From contig CAWBZV010000003.1 in assembly GCA_963793305.1 (NCBI GenBank), positions 704,001 to 768,000 of the forward strand: a stretch of 64,000 bases of DNA, written 5' to 3'. Under the pieces are notes generated by a model. That model was given only the letters and a program-made list of their open reading frames with translations. It searched no databases and was not told the DNA's origin. Both the position numbers and the translations under genes were made by a program. The first letter of the stretch is position 1, and each line of letters starts with the position of its first letter. Positions 4,010 through 7,462 of this stretch are shown in pieces. This DNA comes from an uncultured Gemmatimonadales bacterium (lineage in GTDB: Bacteria > Gemmatimonadota > Gemmatimonadetes > Gemmatimonadales > Gemmatimonadaceae).

Positions 4010-4969
4010 GTGCCGAACGTATGGAGGGCGGTGGGGAGGAGCGCCGAGGGCAGTTCGCATCGGCGGGCGAAGCTCCCGAATCAGGATGCGCTCCGACTGT
4101 GGAATCCACACGGCGACGGGCAATCGGTGATCGTCGCCGTCGCCGACGGCCACGGGAGCGCCACGCATTTTCGCAGCGCGACGGGTTCGCGGTTCGCGGT
4201 GGAGGTGGCCGAGCGGGTGTTGCGCGATCTCGATGGCGCGTTGCGCGCGGGCGGCGCGCTGGACGCTGAGCGCGAGCAGTGGATTCGGAAGGAGATCGTC
4301 TCGCGCTGGCGTGCGTGCTGTATCGCGGACGCCGAGGCGAACCCGTTCACGTCGGCCGAGGAGGTACGTCTGAGCGGAGCGGGCGCGCGCGACCAGATCT
4401 TCGATCGCGCGCTGGCCTACGGCTCGACGCTGCTCGCGGGGTTAGCCACCGACGGGCGCCTCGTACTGCTGCAGATCGGCGACGGCGACATCCTCGCGGT
4501 CGATGCGGCGGGATCCCAGTTCCGTCCTTTCCCCCGCGACGCTCGTCACGTCGCGAACCTCACGACGTCACTCTGTCTCCCGGACGCGGTCGACAACGTC
4601 CGCGTGGCGTCGCTCTCGCCGAACACGATCTCCCTCCTTCTCTTCGCGACCGACGGCTACGCCAACTCCTTCGCCTCAAGCGAGGCTTTCGAGCGCGTCG
4701 TCGGCCCGCAGATTCTCTCACAGGTGCGCGAGCGGGGGGTCTCCTGGGTCTCTCAGGTTCTTCCGAGCTCCCTCAAAGCCGCGGCCGAGCGTGGCAGCGG
4801 CGACGACGTGACGCTCGCGATTCTCACATGCGAGGACGCCCCAGCCGGAGCCATTGCCCCGGGGCAAGGTCGCAGCGATGCACCGGTGACGCTCAGCGGG
4901 CTCGTGGTCATGCTGGGCGTGCTGCTCGTGGTCGGGTTGTGTCTCTGGCGAGTACTGCTGCCCCGTTGA
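4010..4969 (+). CDS. PP2C-family protein phosphatase with C-terminal membrane anchor
   Basis: NQDA, VADGHGS, QIGDG, ATDG and GDDVT motifs; hydrophobic C-terminus; GTG start inferred. Confidence 0.85.
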   Translation: MPNVWRAVGRSAEGSSHRRAKLPNQDALRLWNPHGDGQSVIVAVADGHGSATHFRSATGSRFAVEVAERVLRDLDGALRAGGALDAEREQWIRKEIVSRWRACCIADAEANPFTSAEEVRLSGAGARDQIFDRALAYGSTLLAGLATDGRLVLLQIGDGDILAVDAAGSQFRPFPRDARHVANLTTSLCLPDAVDNVRVASLSPNTISLLLFATDGYANSFASSEAFERVVGPQILSQVRERGVSWVSQVLPSSLKAAAERGSGDDVTLAILTCEDAPAGAIAPGQGRSDAPVTLSGLVVMLGVLLVVGLCLWRVLLPR

Positions 4970-4971
4970 CG

Positions 4972-5027
4972 GGAAAGACGAAACCCCGGGGAATCCTCCC
5001 CCGGGGTCACGCGGCAGCCCAGGAAGC
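4972..5027 (-). ncRNA. Putative small RNA 2, antisense to a tRNA variant with anticodon loop CCAGGAA/CUAGGAA
   Basis: Predicted RNA GCUUCCUGGGCUGCCGCGUGACCCCGGGGGAGGAUUCCCCGGGGUUUCGUCUUUCC; paralogue of sRNA 1 with its own promoter and terminator hairpin. Confidence 0.65.
4983..5007 (-). terminator. Intrinsic terminator hairpin of sRNA 2
   Basis: 9-bp stem accccgggg/ccccggggt followed on the minus strand by TTCGTCTTT. Confidence 0.7.
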
Positions 5028-5034
5028 GACTGAC

Positions 5035-5062
5035 AATCTAGGTCATGCTCCGGCGCAATCAA
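5035..5062 (-). promoter_or_regulatory. Sigma70-like promoter of sRNA 2
   Basis: Minus strand TTGATT-N16-TAGATT; the -10 box ends 7 nt before the antisense sequence begins. Confidence 0.6.
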
Positions 5063-5083
5063 CGTGCAACATTCCACGTCCAC

Positions 5084-5139
5084 AAAATGCGAAACCCCGG
5101 GGAATCTTCCCCCCGGGGTGACGCGGCAGCCTCGCAAGC
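5084..5139 (-). ncRNA. Putative small RNA 1, exact antisense to the adjacent tRNA anticodon arm
   Basis: Predicted RNA GCUUGCGAGGCUGCCGCGUCACCCCGGGGGGAAGAUUCCCCGGGGUUUCGCAUUUU; first 20 nt are perfectly complementary to the tRNA (5247-5266), next 7 nt to its 5' acceptor strand. Confidence 0.75.
5094..5119 (-). terminator. Intrinsic terminator hairpin of sRNA 1
   Basis: 9-bp stem accccgggg/ccccggggt followed on the minus strand by TTCGCATTTT. Confidence 0.7.
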
Positions 5140-5145
5140 AACTAT

Positions 5146-5174
5146 AATTTAGGCCGCTCTCACAGCGTGGTCAA
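5146..5174 (-). promoter_or_regulatory. Sigma70-like promoter of sRNA 1
   Basis: Minus strand TTGACC-N17-TAAATT; predicted start near 5139 coincides with the first antisense base. Confidence 0.7.
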
Positions 5175-5201
5175 CGTGTAATCACGCACGGCGAACTAGC
5201 G

Positions 5202-5287
5202 TGCCGAGGACGGGATTTGAACCCGCACGGCCCTTTCGAGCCAGCAGCTTGCGAGGCTGCCGCGTCTACCAGTTCCGCCACCCCGGC
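5202..5287 (-). tRNA. Class II tRNA with Leu-type body and CGC (Ala) anticodon; CCA not encoded
   Basis: Cloverleaf GCCGGGG-TG-GCG GAACTGGTAGA CGC-G-GCAGC CTCGCAA GCTGC-T-GGCTC GAAA GGGCC-GT-GCGGG TTCAAAT CCCGT-CCTCGGC-A; anticodon at 5251-5253. Confidence 0.92.
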
Positions 5288-5368
5288 ACCTCGCGTGCTG
5301 GGCGAACACTGGGAATACTGCGACACAGTAGCCAAGAAAAGCGCACCACGACTAGTCAGCGGGCGAAG

Positions 5369-5397
5369 AGTATAGCGAGTCTCCGCCACGCCGTCAT
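5369..5397 (-). promoter_or_regulatory. Putative sigma70 promoter of the tRNA
   Basis: Minus strand ATGACG-N17-TATACT about 80 nt upstream of the tRNA. Confidence 0.5.
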
Positions 5398-5452
5398 CGT
5401 TGAGTTGCGAACCGTATCGTTAAGCACTGAGCGATCTACAACGAGTCGAGCG

Positions 5453-7462
5453 TCAGCGCAATCCTTGGCCTGCGCTTGTCGTTCCAAGCTGCTGCTCGCC
5501 CCAAATGTAATGCCCGAACCAGTCCAGGTTCTCCTGCATGACCGATCGTTGCTGCTTGGGTTTGTCGATTGGGTGCCCGAACCCGGGATACACGACCATG
5601 CGCACCGGCACGCCCTTATCGCGAAGCGCCTGATAGAGCTCGAACCCATTCGGGATGGGCACGCGCTTGTCGCTCCCCCCATGCTGTATCAGCGTAGGAG
5701 TCTTCGCGGTCTTGATGTACGTGATGGGCGACGTCTTCTTGTAGATCTCCGGATCATCCCACGGCGTCGCGTGGAGATACTGTCGCGTAAAGGGATGGAT
5801 GTCGGTATTGACATAGTAGGTCATCCAGTCGGAGATGCCCGCCCCGACCGAGACCGCCCGGAACCGATCGCTGAACGTGGTGATGAACGCCGAGATGTAC
5901 CCACCTTCGCTCCACCCCATGGATGCCACTCGGCTCCGATCGACGAACCCTCGAGCGATGAGATAGTCGACGCCAGAGATGACGTCGGCATAGTCCCCGA
6001 CGCCCAAGTTGCGCACATTGAGCGCCCGGAACTTCTCGCCGTATCCGGCCGAGCCGCGATAGTTCGGCCTCAGGATAACGGCGCCTTTGGAGGCAAAGAG
6101 CTCGACGGGATAGTATCGATCCGCGCCGAGCGTGGTGCGATCGACGCCGGTCGGCCCGCCGTGGATGACGACGAGCAGAGGGTATTTCTTGGTGGAGTCG
6201 AACCCAGGCGGCGTGATGAGCACGCCTTCGACGGCCGCGCCGTCGGTGGATTTCCACTGCACGAGCTGCCGTCGGGCCGACTTGAACGCCGACAGCTGGT
6301 CCCCCATGGTTGTAATCGCTTTCGGCGCGAACGGTTTGATGTCGGAGACGCCGATCTCCGGATACGCATTATCCCCGGCCGCGACGAACGCGCACGGTGC
6401 TCGCGTGCCGCGCGAGCGAGAACTGGCCGGCGATGCGCTTGGGATCGGAGAGCGTCTCGACGGTGCCAGACTTGGGATCGACGCGAGAGAGCACCTGGTA
6501 GGTACGCTCAAGCGGTGAGAAGTAGATGCCGTCCTTGTCCCAAGCGAACGGCGACGCATTCTCGTCGAACGACGTGGTGATCGCACGCGGCGTACCACCG
6601 TTCGCACTCACCACCGCGATGACCGTGTTCGTGTAGTAGAAGTACGGACTCCCATTGGCGGTCGAGAACGCGATCTCGTTCCCGTCCGGCGACCACACGG
6701 GGTTCGTATTGGGGCCGCCGGCCTCGACGATCTTCTTGACGCTCTTGTCGGCGACGGTGACGACGTAGATGGCGGCGGTGTTGGACGAGCCGAGGTCGGG
6801 ATCGCGCTGTGCGGAGAACGCGATGCGGGAGCCGTCGGGCGACCACGCGTATGAGCCGACGGTGAACTGGTCGCCCTCGGTCAGCCGCCGCGGCTCGCCG
6901 CCGGCCGCGTCGACGAGCCACAGGTGGCTCATCGAGTAGTCGCCGCCGATGACCTGGATGTCGCCGTAGGTACTATCGCGATCTTTGCGCGCTTTGGATT
7001 TCGGGTCGCGACTCACGAACGCGATGCTGCGTCCATCGGGCGACCACTCGAGCTCCGAGACGCCGGTCTCGACGCGCGTCAGCTCTCGCGCTTCGCCGCC
7101 GTTCGGCGCGATGACGTAGATCTGCGTCGAGTCCTCGAGCTTCCCGCCGGGCAGCGCGACGGGCCGCGTGGAGAGGAACGCGATCCATTGCCCGTCGGGC
7201 GACCATTTCGCGTCGAAGCTCGACCCTTTGCCGCTGGTGAGCTGCACGCGCTGTGTGCCGGCGGCGTCCGCCAGCCACAGCTCGCGCTCGAACGCATTGG
7301 CCTCCCAGTTCGTGTGGGAGACTTCGTACGCGACCCACTTTCCGTCGGGCGAGATGCGCGGCGCATTCGCGCTTTTCATCTCCAGGGACTGGTCGATCGT
7401 GGGAGCCTGAGCGTGGCGGGGAGTGCCGCACCGAGCACGAGTACAATCGCGAGTTTTCGCAT
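5453..7462 (-). CDS. S9 family peptidase (PD40 propeller plus prolyl oligopeptidase domain), two frameshifts
   Basis: Signal peptide MRKLAIVLVLG from 7462; WSPDG repeats (ORF 6369-7379); HGGP, GWSEGG, HGGSDKRVP and GFGH catalytic motifs (ORF 5453-6607); shifts near 7415 and 6390. Confidence 0.85.

Follow-up and report, generated by a model that had tools for sequence, protein, structure and literature searches.

Leucine-type tRNAs with non-leucine anticodons and their putative antisense small RNAs in Gemmatimonadales

Allo-tRNAs of soil bacteria are transfer RNAs (tRNAs) served by a synthetase that ignores the anticodon; the available sections of two reports place them at 35 of the 64 codons, with GCG and GUC among the commonest, and suggest a link to toxin–antitoxin (TA) systems, protein TA genes being found next to them (PMC5389517; PMC7609411). 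Here we analyse a 64,000-nt stretch (the window) of an uncultured Gemmatimonadales bacterium (GenBank assembly GCA_963793305.1, contig CAWBZV010000003.1, positions 704,001–768,000 of the forward strand), in which a class II tRNA that combines a leucine-type body with the anticodon CGC (alanine) is followed, on the minus strand, by a putative small RNA complementary to its anticodon arm. The original prediction for this locus had proposed an all-RNA TA module, a mistranslating tRNA followed by an array of antisense small RNAs. The tRNA and its relatives resemble allo-tRNAs in the diversity of their non-cognate anticodons and in their presumed reliance on an anticodon-blind synthetase. In contrast to allo-tRNAs, for which the same sections describe 8/4 or 9/3 acceptor/T stems and serine (or alanine) identity, they have a 7/5 arrangement, A73 and a leucine-type body, and the 12-bp acceptor branch of the 8/4 or 9/3 kind was not found in the family.

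Type VIII TA systems, CreTA and SdsR/RyeA among them, consist of two RNAs; the toxin RNA of CreTA sequesters a rare tRNA, and its antitoxin depends on Cascade. The unit described here shares with type VIII systems its all-RNA composition and a proposed antitoxin that would act by base pairing, and the complementarity between its two partners is extensive (20/20 nt in the window, median 18 bp across 63 units). It differs from CreTA in that the proposed toxin is itself a decoding tRNA, that the antitoxin would pair with it directly and that no cas genes take part. T-boxes are RNAs that read a tRNA through its anticodon loop, and 3′ETS-leuZ is a functional small RNA in a tRNA trailer, acting as a sponge; anticodon-loop reading by an RNA and a small RNA in a tRNA trailer recur here. 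Unlike the T-box, the unit controls no downstream gene, its pairing of ~18 bp extends into the stems and would unfold the tRNA, and the Rfam scan returned no T-box match at gathering level or at E≤1. Unlike the 3′ETS sponge, its trailer RNA would target its own tRNA and not other small RNAs.

tRNA-ProX is often accompanied by a dedicated prolyl-tRNA synthetase (ProRS) paralogue, and nematode nev-tRNAs have a leucine-type body, are charged with leucine and cover few anticodons (glycine and isoleucine). The available part of the tRNA-ProX study describes these tRNAs (ProA/ProN/ProT) of Streptomyces and Kitasatospora as a retained body/anticodon mismatch and a case of encoded mistranslation (PMC11415595); they have a proline body and ANN anticodons, whereas here a leucine body, a single leucyl-tRNA synthetase (LeuRS) and a dedicated antisense RNA are found. 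The nev-tRNAs are class II with anticodons of neither leucine nor serine and differ in being eukaryotic and in their few anticodons, and the accessible text describes no partner RNA for them (PMC3333845). Likewise, the words ‘antisense’ and ‘complementary’ are absent from the accessible text of the allo-tRNA paper (Mukai et al. 2017, PMC5389517). In the full-text literature, outside which most subscription journals lie, we found no report of a tRNA controlled by an anti-anticodon small RNA. None of the accessible texts on these other tRNAs mentions a partner antisense RNA.

The odd tRNA, its complement and the wider family

ARAGORN labels the gene ‘tRNA-Ala(cgc)’ (87 nt), and it is the sole gathering-level Rfam match in the window (tRNA, RF00005; 55.1 bits against a gathering score of 29). 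Its acceptor stem has 7 bp (GCCGGGG/CCTCGGC) with discriminator A73, the D-arm reads GGCGGAACTGGTAGACGC, the anticodon stem is GCAGC/GCTGC with the loop CTCGCAA, the variable arm is long and GAAA-closed, and the T-arm is normal. The D-arm GGYGGAAYTGGTAGACRC is of the type carried by the genuine tRNA-Leu genes of the genome. A G3:U70 pair is the identity determinant of alanyl-tRNA synthetase; position 3:70 is C:G here, and the corresponding column pair of the family alignment (4/85) contains CG, GC, UA or UG and never GU. Neither this gene, with CGC, nor any other family member has a leucine anticodon (NAG or YAA). The same genome encodes two ordinary 74–76-nt tRNA-Ala(CGC) and the complete set of five tRNA-Leu isoacceptors, and its only LeuRS is of the bacterial type. 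Since the leucine-type body stands beside this genuine set, the gene represents an extra leucine-type tRNA with an alanine anticodon. A73, the leucine D-arm and the lack of G3:U70 make a leucine identity plausible. In the available sections of two studies, recognition by LeuRS is independent of the anticodon (PMC11028032), and the core tertiary structure of tRNA-Leu matters for recognition by the Aquifex aeolicus enzyme (PMC2377443). Because LeuRS ignores the anticodon, it should charge a tRNA with an odd one. Reassignment of GCG to leucine was considered and ruled out by the genuine tRNA-Ala(CGC) genes, by the status of GCG as the commonest codon and by close relatives that carry other anticodons at the same site.

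Downstream of the tRNA, the sequence GCTTGCGAGGCTGCCGCGTC (5139–5120) is a perfect 20/20 reverse complement of tRNA positions 22–41, which extend from the 3′ strand of the D-stem through position 26 and the 5′ strand of the anticodon stem across the entire anticodon loop to two bases past it. It would form the 5′ end of a predicted small RNA (small RNA 1), in whose predicted fold this seed is mostly unpaired; the terminator hairpin that follows folds better than 200/200 shuffles (z −2.5), and its T-run ends near 5085. Three such units lie on one contig of this genome, and all three contain an 87-nt leucine-body tRNA(CGC); the anticodon stem differs among the three paralogues, each matched by its own downstream RNA.

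Relatives were collected by BLAST against 40 related genomes and then by searching 401 genomes of the phylum with two patterns, of which the first left out A at the middle anticodon base and the second required it. The first gave 30 matches in 20/401 genomes, of which two were chance hits in coding sequence and one was a truncated tRNA; a reversed control pattern gave one match. The second gave 12 matches in 11/401 genomes, with one genome of another class matched but not confirmed as a tRNA. Pattern matches fall in three families of the order to which the window belongs. In another family of the same class, 2/70 genomes matched, one through a chance coding hit and the other through a tRNA without a small RNA (L160). 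Altogether, 56 distinct odd-anticodon class II tRNAs were assembled from genomes, and metagenome contigs added at least 13 further units among at least 57 pattern-bearing tRNAs; in all, at least 63 distinct units with at least 13 non-leucine anticodons were obtained. Among the 63 collected units, CGC predominates (24), followed by GGC (8), GCG, GAC and CAC (6 each), CTC and GTC (3 each), AGC (2) and GGA, AGG, GGG, GGT and GCC (1 each).

Complementarity was scored antiparallel, with the anticodon covered, within the 150–200 nt downstream of each tRNA. An own duplex scoring ≥24 was present in 50/56 genome tRNAs. Cross-pairings with flanks of tRNAs of different anticodon reached 23 at the 99th percentile and 29 at the maximum (n=964); own upstream flanks peaked at 21 (0/35 passing) and genuine tRNA-Leu genes at 17 (0/12 passing). 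The complementarity between tRNA and small RNA is therefore far beyond chance. The six tRNAs without such a duplex are two with proline anticodons in a different context (L012, CGG; L146, TGG), L160 (GCC), a degenerate tRNA whose site is occupied by an intact unit in a relative (L014), one paralogue of the window unit (paralogue A, L148) and a tRNA whose contig ends 71 nt past it (L432). In L012 and L146, a terminator hairpin precedes the tRNA and a small Lys/Arg/Pro-rich open reading frame (ORF) follows it, a context that is possibly the edge of an integrated element.

The anticodon and the triplet facing it in the small RNA change together. Orthologous sites within the genus were defined by tblastx comparison of flanks. 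At the first, all four genomes retain the stem GGCCGA, the anticodons being CGC, CGC, CTC and CAC; the paired triplets in three small RNAs are GCG, GAG and GTG, and in the fourth genome, represented by the rearranged paralogue A of the bacterium studied here, the GCG complement lies in a terminator loop. At the second, the anticodons are CGC, GGC, GGA and GGC, with matched small RNAs. Conversely, eight units of different sources have the stem GCAAC/GTTGC in common and differ in anticodon (CGC, GAC, GTC, GGT, GCC, CTC), and each small RNA contains the exact complementary triplet. When the 25 closest pairs of tRNAs are compared, 8.3% of sites differ in the body and 33% in the anticodon, a ~4-fold faster rate of change for the anticodon and the reverse of ordinary tRNAs. 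These results bear out the expectation of the original prediction that leucine-body tRNAs with non-leucine anticodons would occur elsewhere, with a downstream inverted copy that co-varies with the anticodon.

Two variants depart from the linear arrangement. In paralogue A (L148, G000:C3:451773-452000), the linear anti-anticodon seed has been replaced and the small RNA is complementary over 14 nt to the variable arm and also to the D-arm; its terminator hairpin has a loop, ATTGCGA, that exactly complements the anticodon loop TCGCAAT, an arrangement that suggests a loop–loop form of contact. In the congener unit L177, pairing spans the anticodon and reaches into the variable arm. Both variants retain contact with the anticodon.

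Sequence evidence for RNA-level pairing and predicted transcription signals

The 63 duplexes, whose limits were set by a score that treats all mismatches alike, range from 11 to 27 bp (median 18) and contain 1069 Watson–Crick pairs, 31 G.U, 5 A.C and 11 transversion mismatches. The excess of G.U over A.C has a binomial p of 1e-5 against 0.5 and of 7e-8 against a composition-based expectation of 0.42, both values being overstated because the units are related. Since G.U is tolerated only in RNA, and the same change read on the other strand would be A.C, pairing is selected at the RNA level on the tRNA-sense strand. This bears on a DNA-level by-product, in which template switching (quasi-palindrome correction) would recopy the anticodon arm onto the inverted copy with no RNA function. 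Conversion of this kind could change both partners together, as seen at the orthologous sites. However, it should erase mismatches regardless of type, against the observed G.U:A.C ratio of 31:5, and it explains neither the positioned promoter and terminator described below nor the restriction of the copy to odd-anticodon tRNAs (0/12 genuine tRNA-Leu). We therefore regard it as barely credible.

A sigma-70-like promoter ends 0–8 nt before the first paired base in 38/54 units and in 0/54 control windows. The distance is most often 6 nt (19 units, as also for small RNA 1 in the window), and the consensus is mostly TTGACT/C-17-TAnnnT, so that the claim of the original prediction that each predicted start falls at the onset of complementarity holds for small RNA 1 and extends to the other units of the 38. 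A terminator hairpin with a T-run lies within 110 nt in 26/54 units under a strict rule, against 1/54 controls, and most units failing the rule have an imperfect one by eye. The predicted small RNAs would thus be ~55–90 nt long, the two in the window being the shortest. Many have a middle hairpin that mirrors the D-arm of the tRNA, and the small RNA looks like an inverted copy of the 5′ half of the tRNA that has been kept as a gene.

The same layout could be read as a purely cis-acting maturation lock, in which the complement in a read-through precursor would pair with the anticodon arm of the same molecule and prevent its processing, and the internal promoter would have no importance. Between the 3′ end of the tRNA and the duplex there are 37–75 nt, which are filled by the promoter; as no terminator fits there, tRNA transcripts must run into the small-RNA segment, a feature that such a lock would share. 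The −35/−10 pair, positioned in 38/54 units against 0/54 controls, would nevertheless be needless for a pure trailer, and we consider a lock of this kind, acting alone, quite improbable.

For the window tRNA with small RNA 1, co-folding predicts a 20-bp intermolecular helix in place of the anticodon and D stems, and the net gain is −21.5 kcal/mol. The other two paralogues are predicted to gain −20.2 and −11.2 kcal/mol with their own RNAs, and small RNA 1 paired with the genuine tRNA-Ala(CGC) only −0.4 to −1.5 kcal/mol. In these models, binding is cognate-specific.

tRNA integrity, genomic behaviour and possible function

An alignment of 54 members shows that the cloverleaf has been maintained. 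Of its paired cells, 98.2% pair, 21/24 pairs have changes on both sides, all four measures beat 500/500 shuffles, and sliding the partners lowers pairing to 34–46%. The 7-bp acceptor and 5-bp T stems both show covariation, as does the helix of the variable arm. A73 is invariant in 54/54 members, G18, G19, A14, A21 and the T-loop core are also invariant, and U8 is conserved. Within the anticodon loop, U33 and A37 are kept in ≥90% of members and the three bases between vary, which argues for ribosomal decoding over a non-ribosomal use. Several units (in L004, L177, L181, L182 and L430) have C33 instead of U33, which may weaken decoding.

Codon usage, taken from 1389 long ORFs of this one genome, ranks GCG first (56.5 per 1000), and GCG is the target of 24/63 collected units. 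Other targets rank nearby: GGC 2, GCC 3, CGC 4, GTC 6, GAC 7 and GAG 8, rank 5 being a leucine codon. Among anticodons composed only of G and C, CGC is far above CGG, CCG and CCC, none of which occurs with a small RNA, so the preference is not explained by composition alone. In the 401-genome sample, the targeted amino acids are Ala (18), Val (11), Arg (5), Glu (2) and Asp (1).

On balance, and with modest confidence, we favour the reading that the small RNA pairs with its cognate miscoding leucine-type tRNA and disables it, forming an antitoxin- or dose-controlled mistranslation device. Under this reading, the tRNA would be charged with leucine by the anticodon-blind LeuRS and, in the case of the window unit, would insert leucine at GCG (alanine) codons. 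The small RNA would be made from its own sigma-70-type promoter and would also be present within the unprocessed tRNA trailer. It would nucleate on the anticodon loop, invade the stem and form a duplex of ~18 bp that masks the anticodon and unfolds the L-shape, blocking decoding; the tRNA in the duplex might be cut by a double-stranded RNA nuclease. A drop in small-RNA supply would free the stable tRNA, so that the pair would behave as an all-RNA TA system or as a conditional mistranslation switch.

The more specific proposal of an all-RNA TA or abortive-infection module is a tentative one. Here the decoding tRNA would be the toxin, directed at the commonest codon of a GC-rich proteome, and the short-lived small RNA the antitoxin; a shut-off of transcription, for example by a phage, would free the stable tRNA and corrupt all new protein. 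The rapid but compensated change of anticodon and stem would then be a product of conflict, as units escape antitoxin mimics or as paralogues become insulated from one another. The distribution of the units bears on the favoured reading as a whole. The window unit has no syntenic partner, and at the empty site of a congener 21 nt separate the same two convergent genes (PP2C and S9), compared with 483 nt here; this contrast marks the unit as a discrete insertion or loss, although the filled and empty sites are too diverged in alignment for insertion ends or target duplications to be defined. A decayed unit (L142:470-640) has a tRNA that stops after the anticodon loop, with promoter and antisense small RNA remaining. 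Some genomes contain 3–4 units, sometimes within a few kb. The patchy distribution, the empty site and the decayed copy are the behaviour of an accessory element. As a separate observation on clustering, one 3-kb locus (L430) contains two complete units (CGC and GAC), and units in two other genomes (G067, G003) lie 5–9 kb apart.

A regulated, beneficial mistranslation is a rather unlikely alternative on our estimate: leucine would be placed at Ala, Val or Arg codons under some condition with the small RNA as a rheostat, and with no role in addiction or abortive infection. Most targets are Ala and Val codons, the units lie among housekeeping genes, and natural bacterial mistranslators are retained, as the available text on tRNA-ProX of Streptomyces and Kitasatospora relates; the same text reports that unusual bases at position 33 curb decoding in natural mistranslators (PMC11415595), and some units here are C33. 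What counts against this alternative is the patchy presence and absence within a genus, the decayed copies, the several paralogues per genome with private stems and the fast anticodon turnover, all features that fit selfish or conflict elements better than core physiology.

A role in another RNA process is very improbable in our judgement, whether the tRNA would serve as decoy or sponge of the small RNA or the duplex would be linked to RNA repair or quality control (Rtc/Ro60). Bacterial Ro60 proteins have tRNA-like Y RNAs as partners, and one syntenic group of units (L002, L004, L006, L177) has its flanks in common, which in L004 (202-3122) encode an RtcB ligase and a Ro60/TROVE protein (rsr). 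These two proteins nonetheless occur in L004 only among 72 flank proteins at 36 loci, so rsr adjacency is confined to that one group; the unit lies on the strand opposite rtcB and rsr, and no Y RNA or YrlA match was obtained at E≤1 in seven loci. This alternative is further disfavoured by a variable seed that has no conserved target besides its own tRNA.

Several points weigh against the favoured reading of a small RNA that disables its miscoding tRNA. Because many of the units come from relatives, their counts are not independent. Strand-biased deamination could have added to the G.U excess, and base composition could account in part for the bias towards GC-rich anticodons. Replacing Ala or Val by Leu is a fairly conservative swap, so tolerated mistranslation fits as well as a toxin. 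Three intact-looking odd tRNAs (L012, CGG; L146, TGG; L160, GCC) have no small RNA at all, which means either that an antidote is not always needed or that they belong to a different class. Flanking genes, sampled as 72 proteins at 36 loci, belong to neither mobile elements nor known defence systems; they are diverse housekeeping genes, including GMP synthase, MutS, UvrA, TonB and oxidoreductases. The only contig of one RNA run that falls on the stretch covers 5394–5567, outside the tRNA and the small RNAs; contigs from two other metagenome runs cover parts of the stretch.

Layout of the window unit and implications

The features of the unit are collected in Table 1. Minus-strand anatomy agrees with the original prediction, the promoter, the odd tRNA and the two successive promoter/~55-nt RNA/terminator segments being recovered by ARAGORN, Rfam, direct reading and the promoter scan; a scan of the 1-kb region gave 2 promoter-like sites against 0.2 expected. 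The unit lies between a PP2C phosphatase gene (plus strand, ending at 4969) and an S9 peptidase gene (minus strand, ending at 5453) and, as had been claimed, has no protein gene in its interior; the terminator side of small RNA 2 faces the convergent PP2C gene.

Table 1. Coordinates of the features of the unit, in positions of the window
Feature	Position	Strand	Basis and remarks
Promoter-like ATGACG-17-TATACT upstream of the tRNA	5369–5397	−	9/12 matches; candidate with putative function; leader ~75 nt
Conserved leader box GTGTCGCAG, ~40 nt 5′ of the tRNA	5318–5326	−	Three paralogues and most relatives’ leaders
Class II tRNA, leucine-type body, anticodon CGC (Ala codon GCG)	5201–5287	−	ARAGORN, Rfam, direct reading
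Promoter TTGACC-17-TAAATT of predicted small RNA 1	5146–5174	−	Promoter scan; equivalent in 38/54 units
Predicted small RNA 1, ~55 nt; antisense 5′ 20 nt, then GC hairpin terminator and U-run	5085–5139	−	Sequence; hairpin z −2.5
Promoter-like TTGATT-16-TAGATT of predicted small RNA 2	5035–5062	−	Read by eye, 8/12 matches, below scan threshold
Predicted small RNA 2, ~53 nt, diverged duplicate of small RNA 1; terminator hairpin 4982–5008	4975–5028	−	Sequence

The ‘array’ of antisense RNAs fared less well. Two small-RNA segments do exist here, but a second copy is found in at most one other of the 54 loci. Small RNA 2 retains the complement to the tRNA stem and to part of the D-stem, so its description as an antisense RNA stands in that respect; across the anticodon, however, it differs in 3/4 bases, with CCTG where small RNA 1 has GCGA, and its binding to the window tRNA is predicted to be weak (−7.1 against −21.5 kcal/mol for small RNA 1). 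The genome contains no tRNA cognate to it, and we interpret it as a recent duplicate, either drifting or retargeted, and not as a defining feature. The CCCCGGGG hairpin occurs in the 5.7-Mb genome only in the two small-RNA segments of this unit, which ruled out an origin as a dispersed repeat or MITE. One small RNA gave a weak BjrC68 hit, which at 23.8 bits lies below the gathering score of 39 and was put down to a resemblance between terminators.

The leader box GTGTCGCAG (GCGTCGCAG in other families) stands at about −45 in most loci irrespective of the anticodon, and genuine tRNA-Leu genes have no such box upstream; further upstream, some families have CCAGCGGCA...GTTGCC in common. The box is a candidate alternative promoter, processing site or protein site. 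Pairing between leader and tRNA, assessed by duplexfold, gave −60.7 kcal/mol for own and −56.1 kcal/mol for cross combinations, with similar values for genuine tRNA-Leu. By eye, a short recurrent complementarity links leader positions −70 to −57 with the first ~10 nt of the trailer in ~15 units; this leader–trailer helix did not stand out from cross-controls in score (median 16, controls 15; 6/54 units beyond the 95th percentile), and the whole-precursor fold was no better than shuffles (z −0.4).

Viral contigs (L194–L307; for example L205, L206, L248 and L287) also carry class II tRNAs with a leucine-type D-arm and non-leucine anticodons, namely Asn (GTT), Pro (TGG), Gly (GCC), Thr, Trp or stop (TTA, CTA, TCA); these are usually AT-richer, with CCA encoded. 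None of the 38 D-arm-pattern tRNAs among the viral matches listed has a downstream antisense segment, and they appear to form a separate class of identity/anticodon-mismatched or suppressor tRNAs. In the genome studied here, six further long odd ‘tRNAs’ called by ARAGORN (G000:C3:412684, C3:616291, C12:141242, C12:205543, C14:171327 and C5:831649) have coding-like sequence and no tRNA features, and are probable false positives. A tRNA-Sec gene is also present (G000:C11:60848-60941); the genome therefore probably uses selenocysteine.

If the favoured reading is correct, a tRNA can itself be a regulated weapon or switch, controlled by a dedicated antisense RNA against its anticodon arm, and the family would represent a new class of RNA-only TA systems; neither the tRNA as weapon or switch nor its control in this way was met with in the literature covered. 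It would also explain why bacteria retain identity/anticodon-mismatched tRNAs, an open question for allo-tRNAs. The unit would then be a compact, programmable codon switch, reset by altering the anticodon and the small-RNA triplet, as nature has done at least 13 times. Even if the tRNA is no toxin, the 63-member family is a clean case of three-way covariation among two tRNA strands and a small RNA.

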